Shown: positions 13,342-49,453 of the stretch, piece by piece | Position numbering within the stretch: position 1 is the stretch's first letter | Layout: every line of letters begins with the position of its first letter | Assembly: GCA_002305675.1 (NCBI GenBank) | Contig: DBQA01000007.1 | Span: 110,653-174,652, forward strand | Direction: 5' to 3' | DNA: 64,000 nucleotides | Origin: Patescibacteria group bacterium UBA1406 | Lineage (GTDB): Bacteria > Patescibacteriota > Microgenomatia > UBA1406 | Notes under the pieces: generated by a model | The model's database searches: none | Told to the model about the DNA's origin: nothing | The model's input: only the letters and a program-made list of their open reading frames with translations | Translations under genes and position numbers: made by a program

Positions 13342-13345
13342 CGTC

Positions 13346-13825: not shown

Positions 13826-13881
13826 TTCCCTTGCCAACTTGCATCTTGCCAAATAGGCCACATTATGTCACAATAGTCTTA

Positions 13882-21277: not shown

Positions 21278-21305
21278 CGCCGCCTTCTTTTGCTATACTG
21301 GGTGT

Positions 21306-26436: not shown

Positions 26437-27390
26437 ATGAAGATACTGATCACCGGGGGCGCGGGTTTTATAGGGTCACACCTGACCGCGCTTTTTTTGG
26501 ACCAGGGCCACGAGGTGTGGGTCATCGATAACCTGCTGACAAGCTCCAGGAAGAATCTTGACCAGGCCCTCGGCGAACCCCGGCTGAAGTTCATCCAGGC
26601 GGATGTCAGTCTGCCCGACTCGCTTTCGGAGATCAGGAATACCGGGTTTGATGCGGTCTACCACCTGGCCTCGCCGGCTTCCCCCATCCAATACGAGAAG
26701 TATCCCCTGGAGACATTGAAAGCCAATGCGTTCGGAACCTATCATCTGCTGGAACTGATCAGGCACCGTCCTGAGACCAGATTCATCCTGGCGTCCACCT
26801 CTGAGGTCTACGGCGACCCACTCGTCCACCCGCAGACGGAAACGTACTGGGGCAACGTGAACCCATACGGCCCTCGCTCATGCTACGATGAGGCCAAGAG
26901 GTTTGCCGAAGCCGTCTCTTATACCTACCTGAAAAAATACGGGGCGGACACCAGGATCGCCCGGATATTCAACACCTATGGTCCCAATATGGAAAAGGAG
27001 GACGGCCGGGTCATCTCCAATCTCATCGTCCAGGCGCTCTCCGGTTCTCCCCTGACCGTTCACGGCAATGGCGAGCAGACAAGGTCTTTCTGCTATGTCA
27101 CCGACCTGGTGGAAGCCCTGGCCAAAATGGCAGAGGCGGATATCAGGGGAGAGGTCATCAACCTCGGCAACCCGAACGAACTGTCCATCAACCGGATCGC
27201 TGAAACCATCCGGGATCTGACCGGTTCAAATTCCGAGATCGTCCACCGCCCCCTACCCCAGGACGATCCTCAGAAAAGAAAACCGGACATTGCCAAAGCC
27301 AAGCGGCTACTGGGTTGGGAACCAAAGACTAACCTTGAGAACGGATTGAAAAGTACCATCAGTTATTTCCGGGAAAGGTTCCGACTATGA
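26437..27390 (+). CDS. uxs: UDP-glucuronate decarboxylase (UDP-xylose synthase)
   Basis: ILITGGAGFIGSHL, STSEVYGDPLVHPQTETYWGNVNPYGPRSCYDEAKR (UXS-type YxxxK context). Confidence 0.85.
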   Translation: MKILITGGAGFIGSHLTALFLDQGHEVWVIDNLLTSSRKNLDQALGEPRLKFIQADVSLPDSLSEIRNTGFDAVYHLASPASPIQYEKYPLETLKANAFGTYHLLELIRHRPETRFILASTSEVYGDPLVHPQTETYWGNVNPYGPRSCYDEAKRFAEAVSYTYLKKYGADTRIARIFNTYGPNMEKEDGRVISNLIVQALSGSPLTVHGNGEQTRSFCYVTDLVEALAKMAEADIRGEVINLGNPNELSINRIAETIRDLTGSNSEIVHRPLPQDDPQKRKPDIAKAKRLLGWEPKTNLENGLKSTISYFRERFRL

Positions 27391-28529
27391 AAAAGGCGGT
27401 CGTTGTCCTGCCGACCTACAATGAGGCCGGCAATATCGAGGAGATAGTCAGGGAGATATTCGCCCTGAAGGAAAAGAACCTCCAGGCCTGGGACCTGGCC
27501 GTCCTTGTGGTGGACGATTACTCTCCCGACAATACGGCCGGCATCGTTAAAAATATGCAGGGGAAATACCCGGACCTCCATCTTCTCAGCGGACCCAAAC
27601 AGGGTTTGGGCAAGGCCTATGCCCGAGGCTTCAGTCAGGCCATTGAAAAGCTCGGCGCCAGCGTGGTGGTGGAAATGGATGCCGACCTGTCGCACGACCC
27701 CAGGCTCATTACCAAAATGCTTGCCAAAATCGAAAAAGGCGCCGACTTCGTCACCGGCTCGCGTTACATCAGGGGAGGCAGCATCCCCAAGGATTGGGGA
27801 CTGCACCGGAAAGTATTCTCCGTCCTCGGCAACCTGGTGGTGCAACTTGGCTTCATGAACTTCCGGGTACGCGACTGGACCTCCGGTTTCCGGGCCATGA
27901 AAAGCTTCCTGGTCAAGGATATCCTGCCGGAAATGAGCCGTTATAACGGGTATGTCTTCCAGATCGCCTTCCTGGACAAAGCCATCAAACGTGGTGCCAA
28001 CATCCAGGAAGTGCCCCTGAAATTCAAAGAGCGCAAAAAAGGGGTATCCAAGATCAATTTTTTCGACTATATCACGAACATCTTTACCTATATCCTCGGC
28101 AACTCCTCCTTTGCCAAATATTTCATTGTCGGCATGTTGGGTTTCGCAGTCGACTTCGGGTTCGCCTACTTTTTCATCAGCGGACTCGGACTCAACCAGG
28201 TGCTGGCGAACATCATGAGCGCGGAGCTCGCCATCATCTTCAACTTCCTGATGAACAATTTCTGGAGCTTCGCCCACAAGGCCATCGGGGGCGGTCTTTT
28301 CGAATACCTGAAAAAATTTCTGCTGTTTAACCTGGTCACCTCCGGTTCCATCTTTATCCAGGGTGTCGGCCTGTACCTCGCGCTGAGATTTCTCGGGATG
28401 TTCATGTTCTCATTTCTGGCATTCGCCTTCCCGGCATGGGTCCTCTATAAGGTGCTGATCATCGCCTTCCTGGTCATTCCTTACTCCTACTTCATGTACA
28501 ACCGCGTGGTCTGGACGAAAAAGAAATAA
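27387..28529 (+). CDS. GT2 polyprenyl-phosphate glycosyltransferase (DPM1-like) fused to a C-terminal GtrA-like 4-TM domain
   Basis: VVLPTYNEAGNI, VVDDYSPDNT and MDADLSHDP. C-terminal FAKYFIVGMLGFAVDFG...NFLMNNFWSF is the GtrA-family pattern. Confidence 0.85.
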   Translation: MKKAVVVLPTYNEAGNIEEIVREIFALKEKNLQAWDLAVLVVDDYSPDNTAGIVKNMQGKYPDLHLLSGPKQGLGKAYARGFSQAIEKLGASVVVEMDADLSHDPRLITKMLAKIEKGADFVTGSRYIRGGSIPKDWGLHRKVFSVLGNLVVQLGFMNFRVRDWTSGFRAMKSFLVKDILPEMSRYNGYVFQIAFLDKAIKRGANIQEVPLKFKERKKGVSKINFFDYITNIFTYILGNSSFAKYFIVGMLGFAVDFGFAYFFISGLGLNQVLANIMSAELAIIFNFLMNNFWSFAHKAIGGGLFEYLKKFLLFNLVTSGSIFIQGVGLYLALRFLGMFMFSFLAFAFPAWVLYKVLIIAFLVIPYSYFMYNRVVWTKKK

Positions 28530-28533
28530 GACC

Positions 28534-29670
28534 TTACTGGAAGGGGCGCCATTCGGTGATGGGAGCCATATTGGTCATGAGAAAGTTCCAGGTATAAAAG
28601 TACAGCGCCGGCAGGAGGATTATCATGGCCGCCAGAAATTTCCGGGAGGAGAACAACCTGTCAAAAGCGATCAGTCCGAAGGGTAGCATGGCCAGACTGT
28701 ACCTGGCGATATCCCGATGCTGGACGGAAACAATGGCCAAAAAGAAGGCCAGGACCAGATAGAAGGCCGGCCTCAGTTTGGGCACGGAATACATGGTAAA
28801 GAGTACCAGGAGATAGAAGAGAAAGAGGAAATAGACGTCCTCAAGCCAGCCCGTCGCCACCCAGCTTGCCCCGCTGTCGAACACCTGGAACGGCGGGAAC
28901 AGGAGGTGGATATTGTCGCCGGAATGGAAATAGGCCAGAAAATCCCCGGTCTGGTAATAATACAGGGCAAAGACGGCCAGGGTTGCCGTCGGGATCAGAA
29001 GGATCCAACCCCAGGAGAGTTCCAGCTTTCTTTTCTTCACCCACGTTTCCAGAAAGTAGGCGCCGTAGGCAAAAAAGAGAAGGATGCCCGGACTCCGGGT
29101 AAAGGCAGCGAACGCTCCCAGAATGGCCGCCGGCAGATACCGCCTTTCCAGAAAAAAATAGGCGGACACGAGCACGAAGAACATGAACATCGTTTCCGTC
29201 CCTCCTACCGACCTGACAATGAAAAGCCGCGGCGTAAAGAACAGGGCCACGAGTGCGAGGATAAGGGGAGAACGGCTGAGCTTCAGTTTTTCAGTCACGA
29301 AATACAGGGCCGAGGCATAAAGGGCGGCGAACAGCACCGGCCAGACCAGCATGCTTTTCAGATATCCCAAAAGGGGAGCGCCCAGACTGATCAGGAACGG
29401 ATACAGGGGGAAATGGGCCGGAAAGTAATTGGCGGGCAAACCCAAAGGCGAGGTCATGAGCAGTCCCTCCCTGGCATTGTAGAACGTCTTGGCGATCAGG
29501 ATATAAAGAGGCCCGTCCCAGTGACGGTATATGTTCAACATGCTCAACGGGCGTTCGAACCTCAGGTGCCCGATGCTGTCCCAATTAAGGAGAAAGGGCA
29601 GCCAAATTATGAAGGTACTTAACAAAGTCACCGCCGTTATAATAAAATAAGGGAGTATGCGCTTACCCAT
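28534..29670 (-). CDS. GT-C-fold membrane glycosyltransferase (PIG-V/mannosyltransferase-like)
   Basis: About 10 TMs. HWDGPLYILIAKTFY resembles the WD..Y..IA..GY loop of PIG-V-type enzymes. Start set to the ATG at 29670; the upstream part of the track ORF is Arg/Ser-rich antisense to the next gene. Confidence 0.55.
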   Translation of the reverse strand: MGKRILPYFIITAVTLLSTFIIWLPFLLNWDSIGHLRFERPLSMLNIYRHWDGPLYILIAKTFYNAREGLLMTSPLGLPANYFPAHFPLYPFLISLGAPLLGYLKSMLVWPVLFAALYASALYFVTEKLKLSRSPLILALVALFFTPRLFIVRSVGGTETMFMFFVLVSAYFFLERRYLPAAILGAFAAFTRSPGILLFFAYGAYFLETWVKKRKLELSWGWILLIPTATLAVFALYYYQTGDFLAYFHSGDNIHLLFPPFQVFDSGASWVATGWLEDVYFLFLFYLLVLFTMYSVPKLRPAFYLVLAFFLAIVSVQHRDIARYSLAMLPFGLIAFDRLFSSRKFLAAMIILLPALYFYTWNFLMTNMAPITEWRPFQ

Positions 29671-31123
29671 CAGAAACATTGTAGCAAAAGGGCTGTTTCC
29701 GTGGGCAATCCTTTTTGTGGCCGCGGTCCTCCGGCTGTACCGGTTCTCCGAACACGTCATGTTCCTGGGCGACCAGGGCAGGGACGCCATCATCATCAAA
29801 CGGATCCTGACCCTGGAACATTTCCCGGCCATCGGTGCCCCTACCTCCATCGGACAGGTCTACCTCGGGCCTTTCTACTATTACTTCATCTCTCCCTTCC
29901 TCTGGCTATGGAACTTCAATCCGGTCGGCCTGGCCTTCGGAACTGCTCTGGTGATGCTGACAGGCATGGCCGCGGCTTACTTCGTCATCAAAAAAGAGAT
30001 GAACGGGACTGCCGCCGCCCTTTTTCTGCTCATGGCCGTTTTTTCGAGCGTCAATATCGAGGCCAGCCGTTTTTCCTGGAATCCCAACCTCCTGCCCGTA
30101 TTCATGTTCGCCGCCCTCTATTTCTTCTACCTTTCCATCAACAGCAAGAGGCTGGTCTATCCCCTGGTTCTGGGGGCACTCCTGTCCTTTTCCCTACAGC
30201 TCCACTACCTGGCCGTTTTCGTTTTCCTCGCCATTGTCCCCTTCTCCTTGTATTTTTTCCTGAAACACCAGAACAGGGTGCTATGCCTCAAGAAAATAGG
30301 CCTGGCCGTTCTTAGTTTCGCTTTTTTTTCGCTGCCGCTTCTTGTTTTTGATCTCCGCCACGGATTTTTGAATACCAATAATTTCCTGAAAATGTTCTCG
30401 GAGGGAGGGGTGGTCGCCGGAGGGTCGTATCCCCAAAGGCTGACCGAAACCGTTACCGGGTTCTTCCGCCACGCTTTGGCCGTGGATATGCCGCCGGCCG
30501 TCGCCCTGCTGTTGTTCGCCTTCATACTGATGATGGGAACCGTTATCGGCCTAAGGACCAGGAACCTGTTCCACATCCTCCTGATGGCTTTTTTCCCTGT
30601 CTATATCATGGGTTTCGCCTTCCTCGGCAGTCCCCGCCACGCCCATTACTACGGACCCCTGTATTTCGGCTTTTACGCCGCTCTCTCCTACATATTCGCG
30701 GTCAGAGCCGAGAAATGCCGGATCTGCCGGCTGGTGGTGGTAGTCCTGATGCTTGGTTATGTGCTGGCGAACGCGGCCGAATTCAAGTTCTTTTTTGGTC
30801 CGGGCAACCGGCAGGTCGACCGCGCCCGAAAAGTGGCCGCGGCGGTGGAAAGAGAGGTCGAGAAGATGCCTTTCCAGACGGTGGCCCTGCCGGAGAACGA
30901 GACGGACCATGCCTACCGCTACTTCCTGGAGATAGGCGGCAAACCCCCCCTCCCCGACAATTCCGTCGAGCGGGCGGAGGAGCTTTTTGTCCTTTGCTTT
31001 ACCAAAGAGTGCGAGGTCCTCAACCACCCCCAATGGCAAATAGCGGCATTCGAAAACCAGGAAGTTGGTAAAATATGGAGTACTGAAGGGATCAGGATCT
31101 ATAAATTGGTGCACTCCAAATAA
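29657..31123 (+). CDS. GT-C membrane glycosyltransferase (ArnT/PMT_2-like)
   Basis: 488 aa, polytopic. First-loop acidic motif FLGDQGRDAII and a C-terminal soluble domain. Confidence 0.7.
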   Translation: MRLPIRNIVAKGLFPWAILFVAAVLRLYRFSEHVMFLGDQGRDAIIIKRILTLEHFPAIGAPTSIGQVYLGPFYYYFISPFLWLWNFNPVGLAFGTALVMLTGMAAAYFVIKKEMNGTAAALFLLMAVFSSVNIEASRFSWNPNLLPVFMFAALYFFYLSINSKRLVYPLVLGALLSFSLQLHYLAVFVFLAIVPFSLYFFLKHQNRVLCLKKIGLAVLSFAFFSLPLLVFDLRHGFLNTNNFLKMFSEGGVVAGGSYPQRLTETVTGFFRHALAVDMPPAVALLLFAFILMMGTVIGLRTRNLFHILLMAFFPVYIMGFAFLGSPRHAHYYGPLYFGFYAALSYIFAVRAEKCRICRLVVVVLMLGYVLANAAEFKFFFGPGNRQVDRARKVAAAVEREVEKMPFQTVALPENETDHAYRYFLEIGGKPPLPDNSVERAEELFVLCFTKECEVLNHPQWQIAAFENQEVGKIWSTEGIRIYKLVHSK

Positions 31124-31125
31124 CC

Positions 31126-31869
31126 ATGGACGTTTCCATCATTCTGCCTATCTACAATGAGGTCAAAAACCTGCAAAAGGGCGTCCTGGACAAGATAATC
31201 CATTACGCGGAAAAGAATAGGGAGATCAGGGAGATCCTCGTGGTCAACGACGGTTCCACAGACGGCAGCTCCGAGGTGGTGAAGAGGAATTACCTTGGCC
31301 AGTACCCCAAACTGAAGCTCGTAGACAAGGTCCACTCCGGCAAGGCTTTTACCGTCATCGAGGGCATCAAGAAGGCCAAGGGGGATTACGTCCTGTTTTC
31401 GGACATCGATCTCGCCACTCCCATCGAGGAGGCTGACAAACTGATCGAGGATGCAAAATCGGGCCACCAGGTGGTCATTGGCTCCCGAAGTTCCCGCCGG
31501 GAAGGCGCTCCCCTGGTACGGCAAGTTATGGCGCTCGGCCTCATCTATATCCGTAACTTTATTATCGGTCTGAAAGGTATCCGGGACACACAGTGCGGCT
31601 TCAAGCTTTTTAAAAGAAGCAGTGCTTTGAAAATTATCGACAACCTCAAGGTCTTCCACAACGGCAAAGAGATCACGGGCTCCTCCGTCAGTGCCGCCTT
31701 TGACCTGGAGTTCCTGTTCCTGGCCCAGAAGTACGGCATGAAAATCAAGGAAGTACCCGTCACCTGGCGGCACGTGGAAACAAAGAACGTCAATTTCGTC
31801 AAAGACTCTCTGGAATCCCTGCGCGATATTTTCAAAATCAAGTTTTATGAGGTTCTTAAGAAGTATTAA
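31126..31869 (+). CDS. GT2, dolichyl/polyprenyl-phosphate beta-glucosyltransferase (ALG5-like)
   Basis: SIILPIYNE, VVNDGSTDGS, FSDIDLATP and RDTQCGFKLF. Confidence 0.8.
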   Translation: MDVSIILPIYNEVKNLQKGVLDKIIHYAEKNREIREILVVNDGSTDGSSEVVKRNYLGQYPKLKLVDKVHSGKAFTVIEGIKKAKGDYVLFSDIDLATPIEEADKLIEDAKSGHQVVIGSRSSRREGAPLVRQVMALGLIYIRNFIIGLKGIRDTQCGFKLFKRSSALKIIDNLKVFHNGKEITGSSVSAAFDLEFLFLAQKYGMKIKEVPVTWRHVETKNVNFVKDSLESLRDIFKIKFYEVLKKY

Positions 31870-33268
31870 ATGGCCGGCCCTGCTTTTTGCCGTTGCCCTG
31901 GCCTTCCGTGCCTATAAGCTGCCCGTCTTCATTTCCTACCATCAGGACCAGATCAGGGACCTGATGTTCGTCAGGGAGCACCTGGAAAACCAGAGCTGGA
32001 TCCTGGTCGGCCCGAAGGCTTCGGTGGGGGAGTTTTTCCTGCCGCCTTTCTGGTACTACCTTATGGGAGCCGCCTACCTGTTCTCCCCTGAACCTCTTGC
32101 GCCTGCCCTGATGGTGGCGCTCTTAAGCAGTCTAACCACCGTTTTCGTTTATCTCATTGGCCGAAAGTTCTTCGATCTCAGGACGGCCATCATCGCCTCC
32201 CTTCTGTATGCCGTCTCCCATCTGTCCATCGAGTACTCCCGCTTCTCCTGGAACCCGAACCCAATCCCCCTGTTCGTCGCCGCCACGCTCTACTTCTGCC
32301 TCAGCTACTACTACGAAAAGGGGACCTTCCAGCTCGTGATGGCAAGCATTACCGCCAACCTTGGCCTCCAGCTACATTACGAGGGGTTTCCCCTCATCCC
32401 GTTCGTAGTCCTGACCCTGTTACTGATATATATGAAGGAGAAGAATCTCTTCCTGCTTTCCCTCCGGCTGGCCGTCTTTGCCCTGGTGAACGTCATCCTG
32501 ATATTTCCCTTCATATATTACGAGGCGGCAAACGGTTTCCCGAACGGCCGGGGACTGGTGGAGTTCGCCACCCGTCGGTCCGAGCTCCGCCTGTTGGGCA
32601 TTCCCTTCTTTGCCAAATACATGGCGCTGCAGTTTCCCCGGGTCGTGTCCAGGGTCCTTTTCTATACGGAGAGCTATGCGGCCGGGTTTCTGATGCTGGC
32701 GGGCATATCCATCTATTCGGCTTACCTCGGCCTCAAGGCCCTTGCCAGACAGATCATCAGGCCGTCCTCTTTCCTGGCTCTTTTTTTTATACTCAGCCTG
32801 GCGATCCTCTTTTTCTACAAAAACTCCCTCATAGACTACTACCTGCTGTTCCTGGTCCCGGTCATCATCTTCCTCTTCGTTGACCTGACAATGAGGATAG
32901 GGCGTGCCGGCGTATATGTCGGTGCATCCCTCATCGCTCTTCTGGCCCTGACCTCGCCGGCCTTCGGTCCTTCCGATGGAGTGTACGTGGCGGCCAAGAG
33001 AACAGTGACCGAGGTCGCCCGGGAAAAGAGGTATTGCCTGACCTACTTCACCTTCCCGCCGACATATATCCAGCCGAAGTTCGAGTACCTCTTCAGCCTG
33101 GAGGAGAATCCTCCCCAACCCGGCATGTCCTGCGAGCCGACCTACTACCTCTGCGAACCGGCCTTGTGCGAATATTACCAGAAGTTCCGGCCCGTCCTCA
33201 GAAACGCCCATCTTATAAAAGGGCTTGACCGGACCGGGGTATATACATACAGGAAAGGGAGACGCTAA
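31847..33268 (+). CDS. GT-C membrane glycosyltransferase (ArnT/PMT_2-like)
   Basis: 473 aa, polytopic. First loop SYHQDQIRDLMF. 23-nt overlap with the upstream GT2. Confidence 0.7.
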   Translation: MRFLRSIKWPALLFAVALAFRAYKLPVFISYHQDQIRDLMFVREHLENQSWILVGPKASVGEFFLPPFWYYLMGAAYLFSPEPLAPALMVALLSSLTTVFVYLIGRKFFDLRTAIIASLLYAVSHLSIEYSRFSWNPNPIPLFVAATLYFCLSYYYEKGTFQLVMASITANLGLQLHYEGFPLIPFVVLTLLLIYMKEKNLFLLSLRLAVFALVNVILIFPFIYYEAANGFPNGRGLVEFATRRSELRLLGIPFFAKYMALQFPRVVSRVLFYTESYAAGFLMLAGISIYSAYLGLKALARQIIRPSSFLALFFILSLAILFFYKNSLIDYYLLFLVPVIIFLFVDLTMRIGRAGVYVGASLIALLALTSPAFGPSDGVYVAAKRTVTEVAREKRYCLTYFTFPPTYIQPKFEYLFSLEENPPQPGMSCEPTYYLCEPALCEYYQKFRPVLRNAHLIKGLDRTGVYTYRKGRR

Positions 33269-33286
33269 AGTTTGTATAATATGGTA

Positions 33287-37919: not shown

Positions 37920-38815
37920 TTAGCGCCATAATCGTCAACCGCAATGAGGCGGAAAAATTGGACAACTGCCTGTTGTCGGTCAAGGAGTTCGCCGACGAGA
38001 TGATCGTGGTGGACCTCGAGAGCACCGACTCATCCAAAAGCATCGCAAAGAAGCGCGGGGCGAAATTCGTTCCCCATCCGCTCGTGCCCATCGTGGAAGA
38101 GGTCAGACAGGAAGCCTTGAAACATGCAAAGCATGACTGGGTGCTCTTTCTGGATCCGGACGAGGAGATCACCCCGGATTTCCAGGCCGAGGTGAAAGAC
38201 CTTTTCCGGCATGAGGTGGAGTTTGATTACCTCGAGGTCCCGCGCAAGAACATCATCTTCCGCAAATGGCTGAGGCACAGCCGCTGGTGGCCGGACTATC
38301 AGGTCCGTTTTTTTCGCAAAGAGGCGGTCTTCTTTCCCAAGGAGATCCACAGCCAGCCTGTCACCAAGGGCAAAGCCTATGCCCTGCCGGCAAAAGAGAG
38401 TCTGGCCATCATCCACACGAATTATCAAAACTTTGAGGAGTATTTTGCCAAGAACGTCCGCTATGCCAAAACGGAGGCCAACCGGCTGAAAAAGACAGGG
38501 AAAAAACCGGGTTTGGCCGAAACTATCCGTAAAGCCATCTCCGAATTCATCAGCCGGTTTTTCGCCGGTCACGGTTACCGTGACGGCATGCACGGCTTTG
38601 CCCTGGCCGTCCTGCAGATGTTCTACTACTTTCTGGTACATTTCTTTTATTGGGAAACGGAAGGCTATGTGAGCCCCGAGGATGAACGGGAGCTCACTGA
38701 TCACGCCGAAGGTTTTTTCCGGCAAGGATACCGGGAATCTCTCTATTGGCAGGGCAGGAGAAAACCCCTGTCCTGGAAAGAGAGACTTGTGGGGCGCCTA
38801 ATTAGCAAACAATAA
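37916..38815 (+). CDS. GT2 glycosyltransferase (WaaE/KdtX-like soluble type)
   Basis: ISAIIVNRNE, VVDLESTDSS, LFLDPDEE and RHSRWWPDYQVRFFRK. The ATG at 37916 gives an ATGA overlap with the flippase stop. Confidence 0.8.
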   Translation: MISAIIVNRNEAEKLDNCLLSVKEFADEMIVVDLESTDSSKSIAKKRGAKFVPHPLVPIVEEVRQEALKHAKHDWVLFLDPDEEITPDFQAEVKDLFRHEVEFDYLEVPRKNIIFRKWLRHSRWWPDYQVRFFRKEAVFFPKEIHSQPVTKGKAYALPAKESLAIIHTNYQNFEEYFAKNVRYAKTEANRLKKTGKKPGLAETIRKAISEFISRFFAGHGYRDGMHGFALAVLQMFYYFLVHFFYWETEGYVSPEDERELTDHAEGFFRQGYRESLYWQGRRKPLSWKERLVGRLISKQ

Positions 38816-40438: not shown

Positions 40439-40455
40439 TTTATTAGAATAATGAG

Positions 40456-41271
40456 ATGCAGACAGCCCTGATCACCGTCAACTACAACCAGAACGGGATG
40501 GTCAACGAATTCCTCACCTCACTCCTCTCCAACCAGGGTCTGGACCGGACGCTCGTGATCATTGCCGACCTGTCCGACCGTCCGCAATCCGTCAGCATCA
40601 AGAGTGTCCTGCCCCACCAGCTCGTTCTAACAGGCAAGAACAAAGGCTATTCTTTCGGCGTCAATCTGGGGCTCAGAGCAGCACAGGAGAGAGGCATAAG
40701 ACGCTACTGTATACTCAATAATGACATCGGGGTGGGAAGCGGTTTTCTGTCCAGTGTCGACCGGTCTTTCGCGAGCTACCAGGCGTTCACGGGCAAGATA
40801 TATTATGCACCGGGATTTGAATACCATCGGGACAGATATGACCGGCAGGACCTCGGAAAAGTCATCTGGTACGCCGGCGGAGAGGTGGACTGGGACCATT
40901 GCCTACCCCGGCACCGGGGCGTGGACGAAGTGGACCGGGGGCAATACGACCGGGCCGGAAAAGTCGGTTTTATAAGCGGCTGCCTGTTCTGTTTTGACGA
41001 GAAAGTCCTGAAAAGAACCGGCTTCTGGGATGAGAAATATTTCCTCTATTTCGAGGACGCCGACTACTCCGAACGGGTAAAAAAGGCCGGCTTTGAACTT
41101 ATCTATAACCCCTCCATCATCATCTGGCACAAAAATGCCCAATCCACCGGTGGCTCCGGATCCGCCCTGCACCGCCGGTACCAGCGGATAAACCGGCTCC
41201 GCTTCGGACTCAAGTATGCACCTCTCCGGACCAAGTTGCATCTGATTAAAAATATGTTGAGCGGTCGATAA
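40456..41271 (+). CDS. GT2 glycosyltransferase (WbbL/rhamnosyltransferase-like)
   Basis: ALITVNYNQ, NKGYSFGVNLG and LYFEDADYSERV (ED motif). Confidence 0.8.
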   Translation: MQTALITVNYNQNGMVNEFLTSLLSNQGLDRTLVIIADLSDRPQSVSIKSVLPHQLVLTGKNKGYSFGVNLGLRAAQERGIRRYCILNNDIGVGSGFLSSVDRSFASYQAFTGKIYYAPGFEYHRDRYDRQDLGKVIWYAGGEVDWDHCLPRHRGVDEVDRGQYDRAGKVGFISGCLFCFDEKVLKRTGFWDEKYFLYFEDADYSERVKKAGFELIYNPSIIIWHKNAQSTGGSGSALHRRYQRINRLRFGLKYAPLRTKLHLIKNMLSGR

Positions 41272-41272
41272 A

Positions 41273-42403
41273 ATGGTCAGGAAAATTATCACGCTATTGC
41301 TGCTTTTGGGAATCGTCTATAACTGGACCCGATCGTATGGCCTGTTCGAGCCGGAAAAGATATACCGCCACCGGCTGGACTTCAATAAAATTGAGGACCG
41401 GTATTTCAAATCCCAGTGGGTCATTCCGGAAAGCAAGCACCCCGTCGGCGACGACATCCTGTATATCTATGCGGGCGTAAAATATCTCCGGGGCACCGAC
41501 CCCTCGCTCCTGGTGGCCGAGCACCCTCCTTTGGGCAAGAACCTGGTCGGCCTGTCCGCCCTGTACCTTGGCAACGAATATTACTTTTCCCTGCTGTCGG
41601 GCATCTTCGCTCTCATCACTTTCTATCTGCTGGCCAAATCCCTGACCGGTGACAAAAGGATCTCCCTTCTCCTGACCGTATTTTTGGGCCTTGAGCCGTT
41701 AATAGTCGCCAACTACTTCCTCGCCCTCTTTGACCTATTGATGCTTGGGTTTCTGAACCTGTTCTTTTATTTTTTGATTACCGCCAATGACAGAAACAGT
41801 CTCCGGAACATGTTTTTGGCGAACTTAGTCCTTGGTCTGATCATCTCTACCAAGTTCTTCGGTCTGATGCTCCCTGTTCTCGGGGCGGCCCTCCTGTATC
41901 TCGCCGTTAGTGGCAAACCCCTGGTCCTGGCCCAGTACATCCTGGCCCTCCCCGTCGCTTTTATCGTCTATGCCGGCAGTTATTTCCAATATTTCCTGAA
42001 AGGCCACTCCCCGTTGGAGTTCCTGAAGTTGCAGAAATGGATCTACGTCTTTCACACCGAAGGCCGGAAGGCCTTCCTCGGCCTCAACGGCTCCCTGCCG
42101 CTACTCCTGTTCCGGGGCCGGTTCTATACCGATACGGTCCGCACGGTCAGGGAGAACCATCACTCGCTCGTCTGGGCTATATCGAGCCTGGCCCTCCCCG
42201 TCGCTCTCCCCTTTCGGATAAAGAGCGTCCTGGCGGGGAACAGGCCGCTTTTGCTGCCCCTCCTGTGGCTCGGCCTGTACGGACTGATGCAACTTTTTTC
42301 CTTTACCAATGCGAGATACCTGATCCTTATGCTACCCTATATATATCTCTCATTGACGGCTCTGTTATTGGTTTCCGGACAAAAAAAAGATGTCAAAAAG
42401 TAA
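41273..42403 (+). CDS. PMT-like GT-C membrane glycosyltransferase
   Basis: VGDDILYIYAGVKYLRG...EHPPLGKNLVG resembles the PMT loop-1 (DE ... HPPLGK). 1-nt gap after the GT2. Confidence 0.65.
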   Translation: MVRKIITLLLLLGIVYNWTRSYGLFEPEKIYRHRLDFNKIEDRYFKSQWVIPESKHPVGDDILYIYAGVKYLRGTDPSLLVAEHPPLGKNLVGLSALYLGNEYYFSLLSGIFALITFYLLAKSLTGDKRISLLLTVFLGLEPLIVANYFLALFDLLMLGFLNLFFYFLITANDRNSLRNMFLANLVLGLIISTKFFGLMLPVLGAALLYLAVSGKPLVLAQYILALPVAFIVYAGSYFQYFLKGHSPLEFLKLQKWIYVFHTEGRKAFLGLNGSLPLLLFRGRFYTDTVRTVRENHHSLVWAISSLALPVALPFRIKSVLAGNRPLLLPLLWLGLYGLMQLFSFTNARYLILMLPYIYLSLTALLLVSGQKKDVKK

Positions 42404-43151
42404 AGTCACCATCGTCATCCAGGTCAGGAATGCGGCAAACAACATCGCCGCCTGCGTGGAAAGCGCCAAACTATTGACCAGGGATATCGTGGTGATGGAT
42501 ATGGACAGCACGGACGGCACCAGGGAGATTGCCCGGAAGGCCGGAGCAACAGTGCGGGTCATCCCCCGTTTTCCATATGTCGAACCGGCGCGGAACCTGG
42601 CCTTCGAGAAAATATCGGGGGAATGGGTGTTCGTTATGGATGCGGATGAGAGGATGACCGGGGAGCTCGCCGAAGAGATCAAGGCCATTCTTGAAATTAC
42701 CCCGCACTCCTCCTTCAGGGTCCCCAGGGAAAACATCATAGCCCAGAAAGTTACCCTCCGGCACGGCGGGTGGTGGCCGGATCACCAGATCAGACTTATC
42801 AAAAAAACTGATTTTTTGAACTGGCCGAAGGAGATCCACTCCACCCCTAACGTCCGCGGCAGCCGGGGCAAGCTGGAAAACCCGTTCCAGCACTACTTTC
42901 ATACCGACCTTGAAAGCATGGTCGAAAAGACCGCCAACTTCGAAGGTCGGGAGGCAGCCCTCCTTTATGCCGCCGGACGGAAGGTGGGCGTTCCCACTTT
43001 TTTCCGTAAATTCCTCGGGGAGCTCTTCCGTCGCCTGATAAAACAGAAGGGTTTTCTCGACGGCGCCTATGGTATCATTGAGTCGTTCTATCAGGCGTAC
43101 AGCAAAACCATAACGTGGATATTGTTATATGAAAAAAGGAACCAAAAATAA
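42390..43151 (+). CDS. GT2 glycosyltransferase, paralog of 37916..38815
   Basis: VTIVIQVRNA, VMDMDSTDGT, VMDADER, RHGGWWPDHQIRLIKK and EIHSTP parallel the motifs of the 37916 gene. Confidence 0.8.
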   Translation: MSKSKVTIVIQVRNAANNIAACVESAKLLTRDIVVMDMDSTDGTREIARKAGATVRVIPRFPYVEPARNLAFEKISGEWVFVMDADERMTGELAEEIKAILEITPHSSFRVPRENIIAQKVTLRHGGWWPDHQIRLIKKTDFLNWPKEIHSTPNVRGSRGKLENPFQHYFHTDLESMVEKTANFEGREAALLYAAGRKVGVPTFFRKFLGELFRRLIKQKGFLDGAYGIIESFYQAYSKTITWILLYEKRNQK

Positions 43152-44250
43152 ACGAACCTTGTTTCCGTCTCCATATTTATGGTCAGTCATACTAATTCTA
43201 GTATTATTCTTCTCTCTCTTTGTTACTAATAACTCAGATTTACTATCTTACCGATTTGAAAAATCATCAATTGATCTATACTTAAGATCACAGGACATAC
43301 CTCGTGATTATCATATTGACAAGGTCTTTCTTTCCGATAGTGATATCCATATTTCTGCCGGATATCTATATGCTCAGGGCGCTGACCCCACCTATTATAA
43401 TTTCCAACATCCGCCTTTAATCAAATACCTATACGGGTTTTCAATTATTTTTTTTCAAAACCCATACTATGTACAGATATTCTTCGCTATTATCTATTTA
43501 TTAACCGCCCATTGGTTTTTTTTGAAAATCAGCAAAAATAATTACGCATTATCTTTGACCGCAGCCATGCTATTAGCCGCCGACCCCCTTTTGACAAGCC
43601 TATCATCCCAGGCACTGCTTGATTTAGGCCAGGCAAGCTTATCAATGATTTACTTTGCTTCCATCTTAATATTCCCGACTAACTATTGGCTTCATGGTAT
43701 ATCTCTAGGTTTATTTGCTGCATCCAAATTCTGGGCTGCTCCAGTATTTTTCGTAACTCTTCTTGTTGTTTATCAAGTTCTCACTAAAAAATTCAGAATA
43801 AAAAATTACATTTTGCATTTAATAATAGCCTCTCTAATTTTCTCGCTCACCTACATGAAAGCTTTTATAGTAAGAGGAGGTCAATTTAATATCATCCATT
43901 ATCAACTTATGACATTTAAATACTGGCTGACAAACTCCGTTAGCTCAATCCCTATGGCTTCACTTGTATTGTTCGTGACCGGCTTTTTCAAAACATGGTG
44001 GGGAAATAAAGATTTGGCCTTCTCTTCCGTTTGGTCTCCATTTTGGCCGGTCGGATTGATAGTTTCAGCTTTTGCAACCCGCACGGCTTACTTCTTAAAA
44101 GAAAAGGAGGTATTGATATTGGTTTTAGTTCCACTTTTATATCTCTTGTTCCTAGGAGTCCAGGCCCCGTTTAGCAGATATTTCATAATGATCTTGCCAT
44201 ATATCTATTTTTCCATAAGCTATTTATTGTTTAAATCCATAAAAACATGA
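43129..44250 (+). CDS. PMT-like GT-C membrane glycosyltransferase, AT-rich paralog of 41273..42403
   Basis: SDSDIHISAGYLYAQG...QHPPLIKYLYG and polytopic. Hand-counted G+C is 14-17 per 60 nt over most of the gene. Confidence 0.65.
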   Translation: MKKGTKNKRTLFPSPYLWSVILILVLFFSLFVTNNSDLLSYRFEKSSIDLYLRSQDIPRDYHIDKVFLSDSDIHISAGYLYAQGADPTYYNFQHPPLIKYLYGFSIIFFQNPYYVQIFFAIIYLLTAHWFFLKISKNNYALSLTAAMLLAADPLLTSLSSQALLDLGQASLSMIYFASILIFPTNYWLHGISLGLFAASKFWAAPVFFVTLLVVYQVLTKKFRIKNYILHLIIASLIFSLTYMKAFIVRGGQFNIIHYQLMTFKYWLTNSVSSIPMASLVLFVTGFFKTWWGNKDLAFSSVWSPFWPVGLIVSAFATRTAYFLKEKEVLILVLVPLLYLLFLGVQAPFSRYFIMILPYIYFSISYLLFKSIKT

Positions 44251-45311
44251 AAATCGCATTTGTCACGCCTTACCTGGATACTTTGGGCGGGGGGGAGAAG
44301 TACCTCCTGGACATCTCCAGAGTGCTCCACGATCTCGGGCATACCTGCGTCTTTTTCTGGCCGGAGAACCTTTCGGAAAGGATCGCGGACAGGTTCGGCA
44401 ACGCTTACGGGTTCGTCAAGTTCGACCCCCGCTGGCATACATTCAGGGGGATCCGAAAGATCCTTTACACCCGTCAGTTCGACCGCCTGTTCTATATTAC
44501 GGACGGAAGCTATTTCATTTCCCTCGCTAAAAAAAATTACGTTCTCCTGCAGGTACCGCAGCAGAACCTCTTGCCCCATAACCGCCTGTCCCTTATTAAA
44601 GCCCGCCTCTTCACCCCCTTTGTCTTCTCCAACTTCGTCAAAAGATATTTCGTCAGGCAAAATATCTGGCAGGAACCGGCGGTCATCTACCCGCTAATTG
44701 AGGTGCCGGAGAATACGGCTCTCAAGAAGGAAAAGATCATTCTTTCCGTAGGCCGTTTCTTCGGCCATCTGCATTCCAAAAGACAGGACGTGTTGATTAA
44801 AGCTTTCCGATACGCCAGAGATCAGTATCCGGAATACAAGGAATACCGGCTTATCCTGGCAGGCAGCTACCAAGAGGCGGATAAAAAGTATCTCGAAAAG
44901 GTAAAAAAAATGGCGGAAGGCCGGCCCGACATTCAATTTGCCCTGAACATCGGCCGTCCGGAAATGGAGAGTTATTATCAGAAAGCTGCAATCTATTGGC
45001 ATGCGGCCGGATATGGAGAGGAGGAGAGAAGGTCGCCGGAGAAGATGGAGCATTTTGGCATCGCGGTTGCCGAGGCCATGGGCCGGGAATGCGTCCCGGT
45101 CGTCTATAGGGCCGGCGGGCCGAAAGAGATAATCATGGACGGACACTCGGGCTACCTGTTTGAAAAAAGAATAGAGCTTATCAAAAAGACCCTCCGGCTA
45201 ATGAAGGATCCTGCTCTAATGAGGAGGATAGGCAGGGGGTCCCGGCAAAGAGTGAAGGAAAAGTTCTCCGGGGCACAGTTTTCCAAAAAAATTGCCAGTC
45301 TAGTACAATAA
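44247..45311 (+). CDS. GT4 (group 1, GT-B) glycosyltransferase
   Basis: EHFGIAVAEAMGRECVPVVYRAGGPKEII (EX7E region). Confidence 0.85.
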   Translation: MKIAFVTPYLDTLGGGEKYLLDISRVLHDLGHTCVFFWPENLSERIADRFGNAYGFVKFDPRWHTFRGIRKILYTRQFDRLFYITDGSYFISLAKKNYVLLQVPQQNLLPHNRLSLIKARLFTPFVFSNFVKRYFVRQNIWQEPAVIYPLIEVPENTALKKEKIILSVGRFFGHLHSKRQDVLIKAFRYARDQYPEYKEYRLILAGSYQEADKKYLEKVKKMAEGRPDIQFALNIGRPEMESYYQKAAIYWHAAGYGEEERRSPEKMEHFGIAVAEAMGRECVPVVYRAGGPKEIIMDGHSGYLFEKRIELIKKTLRLMKDPALMRRIGRGSRQRVKEKFSGAQFSKKIASLVQ

Positions 45312-45315
45312 CTAA

Positions 45316-46227
45316 ATGAAAAGGGCCCTTTCCGTGGTCATTCCGGTCTACAAGAACAGGAACCTGTTCCTGGCCAACCTCCGACAAAACCAGTCTTTTC
45401 TGAAGGGCTCTGAGCTGATCATTGTCGATGATGCCCCCGACCCGCTCCTCCAGGAGGCAGTCAAAGACCTTTGGCCTGATGCCAGATACCTGAGGAACCG
45501 CCAGAACCTGGGCTTCGGATTAAGCGTCAACCGGGGGGTCAGGCAGGCCGGCTCTGACTTCGTGCTCCTCCTGAATTCGGACGTTGTCCTGACCGACAGC
45601 AAGATTCTTGATGCCCACTCTACACTCCGCAACGATCCCAATCTTTTCGCCGTCAGCTTTGCCCAGACGGAAAAGGACGGACGGACGGTGGGGGCAAACA
45701 GGGGATATTTCCGGGACGGCCTGTTCCATCATTCCCCCAAAGACTGCCGGCAGGCCTGTCCTATCCTTTGGCCCGAAGGAGGCTCGGCCCTGGTCAATAA
45801 AAAACTGTTCCTGAAACTCGGCGGTTATTCCGGGTTATTTGCCCCATTCTACTGGGAGGACGTGGACCTCGGCTACCGGGCCTGGAAGAGCGGTTACGGC
45901 ACTTTGTTCAACCCGGATATAAAGGTCATCCACCATCATGAATCGACCATCGGCAAGTACTTCCCGAAAAACTTCATCCGGTCCATCGCCTACCGCAACC
46001 AATTTTTGTTCTTCTGGCAGAATGTCACCGACAAGAATCTGTTAACGGAGCATTTCCGGAGGCTGCCCGGGATCATCCTTGGAAACCTCATGAAAGGCAA
46101 CTTTCCCCTGATCTCGGGCTTTTGCCGGGCGGTGATGAAGCTACCCGCCCTCATCAAAGCGCGCCGGATTTTAGTAAAATCCTTTATAAGGCCGGACAGC
46201 GAAGTTATGGCCCTCCACACATCATGA
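45316..46227 (+). CDS. GT2 glycosyltransferase, paralog type of 40456..41271
   Basis: LSVVIPVYKN, IVDDAPD, NLGFGLSVNRG and YWEDVDLGYR. Confidence 0.8.
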   Translation: MKRALSVVIPVYKNRNLFLANLRQNQSFLKGSELIIVDDAPDPLLQEAVKDLWPDARYLRNRQNLGFGLSVNRGVRQAGSDFVLLLNSDVVLTDSKILDAHSTLRNDPNLFAVSFAQTEKDGRTVGANRGYFRDGLFHHSPKDCRQACPILWPEGGSALVNKKLFLKLGGYSGLFAPFYWEDVDLGYRAWKSGYGTLFNPDIKVIHHHESTIGKYFPKNFIRSIAYRNQFLFFWQNVTDKNLLTEHFRRLPGIILGNLMKGNFPLISGFCRAVMKLPALIKARRILVKSFIRPDSEVMALHTS

Positions 46228-47873
46228 AAAGCAACAAGGCGATCATCGGGATCCTGGCGCTTTTGACCCTCGTCTCCTTGTTCCTGCATTTTGTCCGGCT
46301 CAACCAGTCGCCGCCCTGCCTGAACGCCGACGAGGCGGCCTACGGCTACAACGCCTATTCGTTCCTGAAAACGGGCCGGGACGAGTTCGGCAACCCGTTC
46401 CCCGTCTTTCGCCTCCGATCGTTCGGCGACTTTAAGCTGCCGTTCTATACTTATGCCACCGTCCCTTTCGTGGCCGCCTTCGGGCTCACCGAAACCGCCG
46501 TCCGCCTGCCCAACATCCTGGCCGCCGTCATCCTCATCTGGGCGGTCTATTTCCTCAGCCGGCAGTTCTTCGACAACCGCGCCGTCAGTCTTTTGGCGGC
46601 CGCCCTGACCGCTTTGTCCCCCTGGGTGAACGTCCTGTCCATGCATGCCCACGAAGTGGTCCTGGCCACCCTGCTTTTGACAGCCTCTTTTGCTTTTCTC
46701 CTTAGGTTCAGTAAAAGGCACTCGCTACTTGACGGAGCGCTCTTCGCCCTTCTCCTGAGCCTGGCCTTGTATACCTACCACATCTCCCGCCTGTTTTTTG
46801 TTTTCTATGTTCTGATATTCCTTTTCTACAGCCTGAGAAACAAGATCGACTGGCGAAAATCGGCCGTCGTTCTGGCCATGCTCTTTGCCTTTGCCCTGCC
46901 CTTTGCCGTCGCGGAGGTCACCTCACCCCCCCAAAGGCTCTCGAGCCTCCTGATCCTCAACCATCCCGACGTCGAGCTGAAGACACAGGAGCTCAAGACC
47001 GAGCTCCACCGCTCTCCGTTCAGCACTCGGGCCTTCGTGGCCTTCGACCAGGTATTGAAGCGGTACCTCACCTACTTCTCCCCGGAGTTCATGATCTTCA
47101 AGGGCGACACCAACCACCGATTCGGGTTTGAAGGTATCAGCCCCCTGTCGGCGGCGGAGTTCGTCTTCATATTTGTCGGCCTTTTCTACCTGCTCCGTTC
47201 CCGAAATGTCAAAAACCGCGGCATGCTCCTCGTTTTATTGGCCATCTCTCCCATCCCGGCCGCCCTGACCTGGCAGGAATACGCGCTGACACGGACCTAT
47301 TTCATGATCGTCCCCCTCGTGCTCATCATGGCCTATGGTGCGGTCAAACTCTTTTCCGCCGCCTTTCCTTATAAAAAATGGGTGGTCCTCGCGGCCATCA
47401 TGCTCTACGCGCTTTACACCTACCGCAGCTGGGAGTTCTTCTTCTACCACTATCCCCGCCGGGCAAGCGTCGTCCGTTCATGGCAGTGCGGCTATAAGGA
47501 GATGGTCAACGTGGTCCGAGAGAGCTACCACGACTACGACCGGTTCCATATCACCCTGGACAACGGTCAGCCGTACATATACCTCCTTTTTTACCTGAAA
47601 TACCCGCCTGCCGACTTCCAAAAGGTGGCCCGAACCACCGAGCCCGACGAATACGGCTTTACCCAAGTCCTCGGCTTTGACAAGTTTGTCTTCAATATCG
47701 ATAGTTTTGACCAAGCAGCCGATGACGGCCGAAACCTGTTTATCCTTAGCCAGAGCGAAGGGAAGGTCAGAAATGTCCCCGAAGACCGCTACGACAAAAT
47801 AAGGATAGAAACCGAAGAGATGTTCTGGGTCTGCCGCCGCTGCTCCTTACCTCAGGAAGAGGTCAAACCATAG
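46224..47873 (+). CDS. GT-C membrane glycosyltransferase (ArnT/PMT_2-like)
   Basis: Start at 46224 (MKSNKAIIG), ATGA overlap with the GT2. First loop CLNADEAAYGYNAYS. Has a C-terminal soluble domain. Confidence 0.75.
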   Translation: MKSNKAIIGILALLTLVSLFLHFVRLNQSPPCLNADEAAYGYNAYSFLKTGRDEFGNPFPVFRLRSFGDFKLPFYTYATVPFVAAFGLTETAVRLPNILAAVILIWAVYFLSRQFFDNRAVSLLAAALTALSPWVNVLSMHAHEVVLATLLLTASFAFLLRFSKRHSLLDGALFALLLSLALYTYHISRLFFVFYVLIFLFYSLRNKIDWRKSAVVLAMLFAFALPFAVAEVTSPPQRLSSLLILNHPDVELKTQELKTELHRSPFSTRAFVAFDQVLKRYLTYFSPEFMIFKGDTNHRFGFEGISPLSAAEFVFIFVGLFYLLRSRNVKNRGMLLVLLAISPIPAALTWQEYALTRTYFMIVPLVLIMAYGAVKLFSAAFPYKKWVVLAAIMLYALYTYRSWEFFFYHYPRRASVVRSWQCGYKEMVNVVRESYHDYDRFHITLDNGQPYIYLLFYLKYPPADFQKVARTTEPDEYGFTQVLGFDKFVFNIDSFDQAADDGRNLFILSQSEGKVRNVPEDRYDKIRIETEEMFWVCRRCSLPQEEVKP

Positions 47874-49423: not shown

Positions 49424-49453
49424 GTGCATATTATAGTTCATAATTTCCGATTT

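Follow-up and report, generated by a model that had tools for sequence, protein, structure and literature searches.

A lineage-wide Microgenomates operon with nine predicted GT-C glycosyltransferases, probably for assembly of a cell-surface glycan

The Patescibacteria, or candidate phyla radiation (CPR), are ultra-small, mostly episymbiotic bacteria whose surface chemistry is, to our knowledge, essentially unknown. A 64,000-nucleotide stretch of one such genome (Patescibacteria group bacterium UBA1406, contig DBQA01000007.1; the whole stretch is called the window here) contains, at positions 27387–47873, a run of glycosyltransferase genes in which a family 2 enzyme (GT2) is repeatedly followed by a polytopic membrane protein of GT-C type. 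An earlier description made from the letters alone (the sequence-only reading) saw here five modules of one GT2 and one GT-C each, after the logic of the Gtr and Arn systems. The locus therefore raises the question of whether its enzymes work as such pairs or as one assembly line. Open reading frame (ORF) calls and Pfam bore out the gene content, families, and coordinates claimed for the interval, namely 17 glycosylation ORFs comprising six GT2 (GT2a–GT2f), one GT4, one Wzx-type flippase, and nine polytopic GT-C proteins (M1–M9). Sixteen lie on the plus strand and one, M1 (28534–29670), on the minus strand, and the ORF survey of the interval found no other plausible gene. The locus is probably a cell-surface glycan assembly operon, in which few lipid-sugar synthases and one flippase would serve many GT-Cs, rather than a set of five self-contained modules. 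Coordinates and individual assignments are collected in Table 1.

Each of the nine polytopic proteins contains 6–10 hydrophobic segments as judged by hydropathy. Pfam PMT_2 was matched above its gathering score by six of them (29657, 31847, 33272/33287, 34792, 41273, and 46122/46224; M2–M5, M7, and M9), and the PMT domain (PF02366) was found in M7 at 24.0 bits against a cut-off of 22.7 and weakly in M9. The sequences of M1, M6, and M8 themselves gave zero Pfam matches, even at E values up to 10. M8 is similar to M7 by BLASTP (E = 6e-15, 27% identity over 351 residues), 16 of the 20 members of its family match PMT_2, and the family aligns with that of M9 at 96.9% probability. For M6, comparison of its 25-member family (A3) with the M9 family (A5) by hhalign gave a probability of 100% and an E value of 1.9e-53 over 520 columns, with the DE motif in register.

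M1 has more than 1,100 homologues, some of which carry PF13231 or are named GT39, Gpi18-like, or ArnT-like, and its family profile matches GPI mannosyltransferase I (PIG-M) at 5e-5. An AlphaFold model of M1 (pLDDT 87.7, pTM 0.90) shows a purely helical membrane bundle, and its first 41 Foldseek matches in the PDB are GT-C proteins without exception (STT3, ArnT, AglB, ALG6, Pmt4, PIG-M, and Emb). The likeness to STT3 is at the level of fold only (TM-score ~0.55, 13% identity), and ArnT has an equal score. The MptA_B_family protein found at a similar position in relatives was considered as a counterpart of M1 and rejected, as BLASTP gave no similarity. Sequence searches against solved structures were nearly empty: single-sequence searches with M7 and M1 returned nothing, as did the M6 and M7/M8 family profiles searched against the PDB, and M9 returned ArnT 5ezm alone (E = 0.05). 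The GT-C status therefore rests on Pfam, hhalign, and one structure model.

An acidic first-loop motif is present in all nine proteins. The seven motifs quoted in the sequence-only reading occur verbatim, and M5 (FHDETQ) and M1 (HWDGPLY) have one too. Family alignments contain invariant acidic residues, D52 in A2, E34 in A3 (M6), D70 in A4, and D36/E37 in A5 (M9); the acidic first loop is placed on the extracytoplasmic side by the positive-inside rule only. The proposal that the nine are GT-C-like thus held for all of them, by Pfam, BLASTP, hhalign, family profile, or the M1 model. By fold and motif they are GT-C glycosyltransferases, for which transferase activity is predicted.

The six GT2s fall into different groups. 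GT2a has the complete DPMS architecture, a catalytic domain joined to a GtrA/DPMS membrane domain. It matches the NCBIfam models PgfS, AglJ, ArnC, and dolichol-phosphate (Dol-P)-hexose transferase (E values 1e-13 to 1e-15), none of these matches reaching its cut-off, and among solved structures GT2b is closest in sequence to Pyrococcus furiosus DPMS (5mlz, 1.6e-14), followed by ArnC (3.6e-10) and GtrB (1.3e-9). The two are paralogous by BLASTP, and the AglJ and Dol-P-hexose transferase models match GT2a, GT2b, and GT2e. Outside the interval, the GT2 at 12409 matches PgfS at 6.3e-84 over residues 6–306 and ArnC at 2.3e-49, both below the equivalog cut-offs. Only GT2a, GT2b, and this third enzyme look like lipid-sugar synthases, which is a resemblance and not proof. 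Two flippase candidates are available within the locus, the MOP/Wzx protein at 36459 and the GtrA-like transmembrane (TM) domain of GT2a, for which flipping is putative.

The best sequence match of GT2c among solved structures is GmaR (1.4e-11), followed by SunS. Its AlphaFold model (pLDDT 92.6) is nearest by Foldseek to SunS/ThuS, TarS, AvpGT, WrtF, SpsA, and TarP, with DPMS at rank 45, and homologues of GT2c carry the Joint Genome Institute (JGI) name "(heptosyl)LPS beta-1,4-glucosyltransferase" (LPS, lipopolysaccharide). GT2d and GT2f match rhamnosyltransferase, MftF, EpsD, HfsG, and GlfT1 models as well as chondroitin synthase. These sequence and model comparisons place GT2c and GT2e with the SunS/GmaR/WaaE type and GT2d and GT2f among the ordinary Leloir GT2s, all four outside the DPMS/GtrB/ArnC synthase group. 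The suggestion that the GT2s at 37916 and 42390 are soluble, WaaE-like enzymes and not polyprenyl-phosphate synthases was therefore right, as the GmaR/SunS matches and the GT2c model indicate. Five modules of Gtr/Arn logic are not supported by the comparison, since only GT2a and GT2b resemble synthases within the locus.

The boundaries on which the five pairs had been based are exact (−23, 0, +1, −23, and −4 nucleotides for GT2b/M3, GT2c/M6, GT2d/M7, GT2e/M8, and GT2f/M9, respectively). From the UDP-xylose synthase (UXS) gene to the convergent CAAX-protease gene, however, all 18 junctions lie between −31 and +18 nucleotides, and the GT2a start overlaps the UXS stop (ATGA). Because every junction is tight, start/stop coupling characterizes the operon throughout and is not special to GT2/GT-C pairs. 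When the 17 genes were shuffled, all six GT2s were followed by a GT-C in 0.7% of shuffles; the gene order of the window is thus nominally non-random, yet it is not conserved in relatives.

The modules had also been described as paralogous. Paralogy itself stands for GT2c and GT2e (BLASTP 7e-38), GT2d and GT2f (7e-6), and M7 and M8, but the shared motif RH.RWWPD is absent from the GT2 at 42390, which reads RHGGWWPD. Further related membrane proteins are M2 and M3 (3e-22) and M6 and M9. The physical pairs (c-M6, d-M7, e-M8, and f-M9) and the related pairs (GT2c with GT2e, GT2d with GT2f, M6 with M9, and M7 with M8) are crossed. This crossing argues against a duplicated two-gene cassette, and the origin of the pairs from such a duplication was rejected for that reason.

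For comparison with relatives, one genome per GTDB species was scanned with the GT2c family alignment, and 318 relatives were confirmed by tblastn. The synteny set comprised 80 loci with 10-kb flanks out of these 318, and the counts cover 78 related genomes. In the relatives' loci, 55% of the genes encode membrane proteins. Against this background, the next gene is a same-strand membrane protein in 37 of 41 relatives for GT2b and in 12 of 15 for GT2f, there always of M9 type. The corresponding figures are 22 of 45 for GT2d (opposite-strand, 11) and 29 of 78 for GT2c, which is otherwise followed by GT2d (23) or an opposite-strand membrane protein (20). For GT2e the figure is 0 of 17, the next gene being the GT4 in 15 of 17. 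Adjacency of GT2 and GT-C is therefore kept for GT2b and for GT2f with M9 and is not conserved for three of the five pairs (GT2c, GT2d, and GT2e), for which the outcome is the one that the sequence-only reading had named as refuting. The only conserved units are GT2b followed by a GT-C and the block GT2e-GT4-GT2f-M9. Look-ups from GT2f homologues showed the block GT2e-GT4-GT2f-GT-C, with a gap of 130–215 nucleotides ahead of the GT-C, and then a minus-strand Rce1-like gene. The "five enzyme pairs" are mostly an accident of gene order, and the alternation of GT2 and GT-C is largely lineage-specific. For annotation, tight adjacency of a GT2 and a GT-C gene does not by itself identify a Gtr-type module.

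What is conserved is the operon. By the names of its GT2c homologues (Candidatus Roizmanbacteria, Microgenomates, or Patescibacteria), the source is an uncultured, Roizmanbacteria-like member of the Microgenomates. The loci of these homologues share the recurrent core order M2, GT2b, one to three GT-Cs, M4, M5, Wzx, and GT2c. Wzx lies directly upstream of GT2c in 69 of 77 loci and M5, the best-conserved core membrane protein, directly upstream of Wzx in 63 of 71; M4 precedes M5, three genes upstream of GT2c, in 39 of 65. The order M5-Wzx-GT2c occurs in ~90% of the 78 related genomes. In loci of 19 kb or more, the median number of proteins linked by sequence to the GT-C classes of the window is 6 (range 2–10), and the median number of polytopic proteins per 21 kb or so is 9. 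Nine GT-Cs are therefore typical of the clade and not exceptional. The nearest relative (L090, 53% identity) is syntenic from GT2a through M6; beyond this point a PMT gene on the opposite strand lies facing GT2d, and the gene after GT2e is the GT4. In Woesebacteria-like loci, GT2b followed by a GT-C is present twice in tandem. The operon is thus a conserved lineage feature across Roizman- and Woesebacteria-like genomes and not a one-off, which implies that its product is central to the envelope or to host contact. It occupies roughly 2% of a typical Microgenomates genome of 1.1 Mb (the size of the complete relative CP066689.1).

A five-step scheme would fit these enzymes together. The upstream genes, whose identities are shown by homology, would supply dTDP-6-deoxyhexose, UDP-glucuronate (UDP-GlcA), and UDP-xylose (UDP-Xyl). 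GT2a and GT2b, and the third such enzyme at 12409, would charge polyprenyl phosphate with single sugars on the cytoplasmic side of the membrane, a role suggested by their sequence relatives. By analogy with GacK and AglR, the Wzx-type MOP protein would flip the lipid-linked sugars or glycan. On the outer side of the membrane, the nine GT-Cs would add sugars to a growing glycan, a lipoglycan, or a surface protein. The soluble GT2c, GT2d, GT2e, and GT2f and the GT4 would be nucleotide-sugar transferases of the cytoplasmic face, probably extending a lipid-linked primer before it is flipped. Each element has a described precedent: GacK is a Wzx-type flippase, and a TM-less cytoplasmic GT-A works with a separate membrane partner (PMC8035078); in Haloferax, soluble glycosyltransferases extend the Dol-P-sugar made by AglJ, and AglD, AglR, and AglS add the final sugar outside the membrane (PMC3871713); in mycobacterial arabinan synthesis, one lipid donor serves several GT-Cs (PMC11127046).

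In favor of a single assembly line, the ORFs scanned in the 64-kb window include no initiating phosphoglycosyltransferase (Glycos_transf_4, Bac_transf), Wzy_C, or ligase family. Several points count against it. The gene for a priming enzyme could lie in another part of the genome, and sequence does not distinguish whether Wzx acts on a mono- or an oligosaccharide lipid. Every NCBIfam score of the GT2s is far below the equivalog cut-off, so that sugar and lipid specificity are not assignable from these scores. The order of the six GT2s (p about 0.007), together with the conserved succession of GT2f and M9, leaves room for an unexplained functional link between some soluble GT2s and GT-Cs. The synteny statistics were obtained with crude ORF calling, phmmer labels (17 window proteins), and a hydropathy count. 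The sequence-only reading would instead have five or six autonomous two-gene modules, in which each GT2 makes the lipid-linked sugar for the GT-C next door and the whole achieves a combinatorial multi-sugar decoration. The tight or overlapping succession of GT2 and GT-C throughout the window, its rarity among shuffles, the two conserved adjacencies, and the tandem repeat in Woesebacteria-like loci speak for such modules. The GT2s themselves do not fit, however, as GT2c–GT2f are without DPMS/GtrB features. The paralogues cross-pair, GT2e is never followed by a GT-C in 17 relatives, GT2c and GT2d are so followed no more often than background, and the junctions are equally tight throughout the operon. 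We regard such modules as improbable.

A protein-glycosylation pathway of the archaeal Agl kind would use many of the same parts: an AglJ-like GT2a or GT2b primes polyprenyl monophosphate, GT2c–GT2f and the GT4 extend, Wzx flips, one GT-C passes the glycan en bloc to proteins of the cell surface, and the remaining GT-Cs draw on lipid-monophosphate donors to attach terminal sugars. The missing phosphoglycosyltransferase and Wzy in the window, the AglJ and Dol-P-hexose transferase matches, the STT3 and AglB matches of the M1 model, and the Pro/Thr-rich linkers of secreted proteins nearby all agree with it, and the Haloferax cluster has a like set of soluble transferases, a MOP flippase, and GT-Cs (PMC3871713). 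No scanned protein of the locus matches STT3 models of Pfam or NCBIfam or the AglB and PglB models, however, and the resemblance of M1 extends to ArnT as much as to STT3. PMT_2-type enzymes are known for monosaccharide transfer, and nine GT-Cs exceed the needs of the pathway, so that an Agl-like role seems possible but rather unlikely. A generic Wzx/Wzy polysaccharide locus of capsule or O-antigen type, with the polytopic proteins acting as polymerases, ligases, or transporters, could accommodate the Wzx homologue, the several soluble GT2/GT4 enzymes, and the nucleotide-sugar genes. It is already largely refuted by the family assignments and very improbable: all nine polytopic proteins tie to PMT_2/GT-C by Pfam, profile-profile comparison, or structure, none of them matches Wzy_C, O-antigen-ligase, or polymerase families, and an initiating transferase was not found in the window.

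The assembly-line reading can be carried further, to a proposal that we put forward as speculative and consider doubtful as a whole. In Microgenomates, nearly all of the work on the main glycopolymer or glycoprotein coat of the envelope would take place outside the membrane, done by a lineage-wide line of 6–12 GT-Cs that is fed with polyprenyl-monophosphate sugars (possibly including lipid-linked xylose from the UXS-coupled GT2a) and has no classical phosphoglycosyltransferase or Wzy. GT-C genes such as M8 would be swapped as cassettes, and the coupling of soluble GT2s to Wzx (GT2c) and to M9 (GT2f) would reflect physical complexes of a GT-A and a membrane partner not yet described. Such a line would be a bacterial counterpart of mycobacterial lipoarabinomannan (LAM) and arabinogalactan or of archaeal Agl chemistry, and swaps of GT-C cassettes between strains would vary the surface, e.g. 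against phages or for host attachment.

Among described systems, the three-component ones (GtrA/B/C, ArnC/E/F/T, CsbB/GtcA/YfhO, GacI/J/K/L, the lactococcal Csd pairs, and Streptococcus mutans SccN/M and SccP/Q) resemble this locus in having a synthase-type GT2, a flippase, and a GT-C whose first loop is acidic, and also in the adjacency of GT2b and a GT-C; GacI/GacK also combine a TM-less GT-A with a Wzx-type flippase (PMC8035078). They differ in stoichiometry, as two to three synthase candidates stand here with nine GT-Cs per operon and not 1:1, and in that four extra soluble GT2s and one GT4 are interleaved. They also decorate a backbone polymer, for which no locus is evident here, and the present locus belongs to a CPR bacterium whose genome measures ~1 Mb. 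In logic the locus resembles the synthesis of lipomannan/LAM and arabinogalactan in mycobacteria and corynebacteria (Ppm1 with PimE, MptA/B/C, EmbA-C, and AftA-D), where few polyprenyl-phosphate-sugar donors feed many GT-Cs and cytoplasmic GT-A/GT-B steps precede the building of a large envelope glycan on the outer side of the membrane; MptA_B_family (PF26314) genes even occur in relatives of this locus. In contrast, the GT-C families here are mostly PMT_2 (GT39/GT83-like), genes for decaprenylphosphoryl arabinose (UbiA/DprE) are absent, the phylum is another, the genes form a single operon, and Xyl, GlcA, or a 6-deoxyhexose is probably among the sugars donated.

The Haloferax volcanii Agl cluster (AglJ, G, I, E, R, B, D, and S) resembles the locus in a GT2 that loads a lipid monophosphate, soluble transferases that extend it, a Wzx-like flippase, a GT-C using a lipid-phosphate-sugar donor, and a UDP-Glc dehydrogenase within the cluster (PMC3871713). 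It differs in that an AglB/STT3 is not recognizable by sequence here, the GT-Cs are far more numerous, and the host is bacterial. O-Glycosylation by actinobacterial Ppm1/Pmt and streptococcal PgfS/PgfM1/PgfE/PgfM2 likewise employs PMT/PMT_2-type GT-Cs, and it has counterparts here in the PgfS-like GT2 at 12409 (6e-84) and in candidate Pro/Thr-rich secreted acceptors nearby; PMT_4TMC and MIR domains were not detected in the polytopic proteins, and nine paralogues stand against one or two. SunS/ThuS/GmaR/WaaE(LgtF) resemble GT2c and GT2e alone, in a GT-A core with a C-terminal helical extension and as their best sequence and structure matches. GT2c and GT2e differ in having no TPR or peptide-binding domain and a host without LPS, and in the coupling of the GT2c gene to Wzx.

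Published work on glycosylation or GT-C enzymes in CPR/Patescibacteria/Microgenomates yielded no description of this locus, and the sole related mentions are of multiple "dolichol-phosphate mannosyltransferase" genes in Peregrinibacteria and Saccharibacteria. The type of system is already known; the locus is new as a large, lineage-wide variant without the usual primer and polymerase genes nearby. Its 2–3 lipid-sugar synthases, one flippase, and nine GT-Cs form a defined candidate set for glycan and glycoprotein discovery.

Table 1. Positions and assignments of the features discussed, in window coordinates; values after family names are E values
Feature	Position	Strand	Assignment and basis
Lipoprotein-like protein, 400 aa	7365-8567		Pro/Thr-rich linker; adjoins sortase 8550-9146
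Third synthase-type GT2	12409-13341	+	310 aa; outside the interval, 14 kb upstream; Pfam GT2 2.8e-34
Lamin-tail-domain protein	19717-20901		Pro/Thr-rich linker
CAP-domain protein	21306-22277		C-terminal TM; Pro/Thr-rich linker
rmlA	22530-23291	+	Pfam NTP_transferase 4.9e-54
rmlB	23294-24307	+	Pfam GDP_Man_Dehyd/Epimerase 1.3e-82
rmlD-like	24247-25125	+	Pfam RmlD_sub_bind 4.9e-56
UDP-glucose 6-dehydrogenase	25135-26430	+	TuaD 2.8e-144
UDP-glucuronate decarboxylase/UDP-xylose synthase (UXS)	26437-27390	+	Human UXS1 (4gll/2b69) 3.3e-104, full length; next match 1e-42
GT2a	27387-28529	+	Polyprenyl-phosphate sugar synthase candidate; Pfam Glycos_transf_2 2.1e-24, C-terminal GtrA_DPMS_TM 2.1e-13
M1	28534-29670	-	Predicted GT-C; sole minus-strand gene of the locus; start at 29670 agrees with 378-aa homologues
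M2	29657-31123	+	Predicted GT-C; PMT_2 3.5e-8; FLGDQGRD loop
GT2b	31126-31869	+	Polyprenyl-phosphate sugar synthase candidate; 247 aa, TM-less
M3	31847-33268	+	Predicted GT-C; PMT_2 2.3e-9; 23-nt overlap with GT2b
M4	33287-34795 (ORF opens 33272)	+	Predicted GT-C; PMT_2 4e-10; conserved core gene
M5	34792-36489	+	Predicted GT-C; PMT_2 1.4e-7/PTPS_related; large C-terminal extracytoplasmic region
MOP/Wzx flippase	36459-37919	+	Pfam Polysacc_synt_3 5.8e-50; NCBIfam MOP flippase 1.5e-38
GT2c	37916-38815 (ORF opens 37901)	+	Soluble SunS/GmaR/WaaE-like GT-A with C-terminal helical bundle; core gene coupled to Wzx
M6	38816-40438	+	Predicted divergent GT-C; TFDEADF loop; hhalign to M9 family
GT2d	40456-41271	+	Soluble Leloir GT2 of rhamnosyltransferase/Glyco_tranf_2_3 type; weak Pfam Glyco_tranf_2_3
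M7	41273-42403	+	Predicted short GT-C; PMT_2 5.9e-7 and PMT 3.3e-5, both above gathering scores; HPPLGK motif
GT2e	42390-43151	+	GT2c paralogue, 31% identity
M8	43129-44250	+	Predicted short GT-C; M7 paralogue; GC 35.7%
M8 swap region	43149-44267 (L001: 14334-15428)		
GT4	44247-45311	+	GT-B fold; Pfam Glycos_transf_1 2.2e-26
GT2f	45316-46227	+	Soluble Leloir GT2, GT2d paralogue; in block GT2e-GT4-GT2f-M9
M9	46224-47873	+	Predicted GT-C; PMT_2 1.3e-10, weak ArnT match; NADEAAY loop; final gene of the operon
Rce1-like CAAX-family membrane protease	47847-48515	-	Pfam Rce1-like 4.9e-12; convergent with M9, 27-nt overlap

The sugar-nucleotide genes directly upstream support the view of the sequence-only reading that a large extracytoplasmic GT-C locus adjoins dTDP-sugar and UDP-Xyl genes (UXS against human UXS1, 3e-104). 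Including them, the operon measures ~25 kb, with rmlA likely its start and M9 its last gene. A promoter-like site, with a best match of 11/12, lies ahead of rmlA at 22221–22249; the promoter and terminator scan was otherwise uninformative. With no rmlC (dTDP-4-dehydrorhamnose 3,5-epimerase) among the scanned ORFs of the 64-kb window, that gene may be encoded elsewhere, or the dTDP sugar may be one other than L-rhamnose. The Rce1-like protease gene keeps its end-of-locus position in L001 and in the distantly related loci L087–L089, and it may be functionally linked to the locus (e.g. in acceptor-protein processing) or be a mere conserved boundary marker.

The GC content of M8 sets it apart, at 35.7% compared with ~53% in every other gene of the locus. 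The exact GT2c protein is encoded on a 381-kb contig of an NCBI metagenome-assembled genome and on the near-identical contig L001 (Logan SRR8427164). The latter agrees with the window at 100% identity over 28816–43148 and at 99.9% over 44247–50462, where all six mismatches fall at 44251–44267, within the first 21 nucleotides of the GT4. Between these segments L001 carries a different M8 allele, with 49% protein identity to that of the window and a GC content of 52.9%. From sequence, it looks as though a single GT-C gene was replaced by recombination with a foreign allele from a donor with the same gene order, which hints at strain-level surface variation; alternatively, an assembly chimera may be the source of the difference between L001 and the window. 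Exact-protein look-ups with the window alleles of M8 and GT2e found no record, and the exact M8 junction pattern was absent from JGI metagenomes, so the evidence for the swap comes from two data sets, the window and L001.

M1 and M2 are divergent and nearly spacerless (29631–29679). If M1 starts at 29670, the M1 and M2 start regions overlap by 14 nucleotides, and a promoter-like site for M2 (29619–29648) falls within the 5' end of M1. The same divergent layout is seen in L076, L077, L086, and L090.

Secreted or surface proteins with Pro/Thr-rich linkers are encoded near the locus at 7365–9146 and 19717–22277 and are candidate acceptors for O-glycosylation. The GT2 at 12409 is followed by an RfaE-domain-II-like nucleotidyltransferase (13346–13825) and a 489-aa LytR_C-domain protein (12409–15300 overall), and a LytR_C-RF2 neighborhood adjoins the locus again in the relatives L087–L089. 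An Rfam scan of the window found four tRNAs only. Downstream on the minus strand (48515–53426) lie a stand-alone 5'-3' exonuclease (308 aa), a 986-aa fusion of UvrD helicase and PD-(D/E)XK nuclease (AddA-like), and RmuC.

Several Roizmanbacteria loci (L003/L034, L004/L013, L005, L087, and L088) contain extra GT-C-type families that this window does not have. There, DUF2079 immediately follows the GT2d homologue, the minus strand bears an MptA_B_family (PF26314) gene, and many of the polytopic proteins of 500–570 aa give no Pfam match. Finally, many third-party annotation (TPA) records of metagenome-assembled genomes with a typical Microgenomates locus (L012, L014, L016, L021, and others) are titled "uncultured Gammaproteobacteria," "Pseudomonadales," or "cyanobacterium"; given the synteny that they share with named Roizman- and Woesebacteria assemblies, these titles look misassigned.

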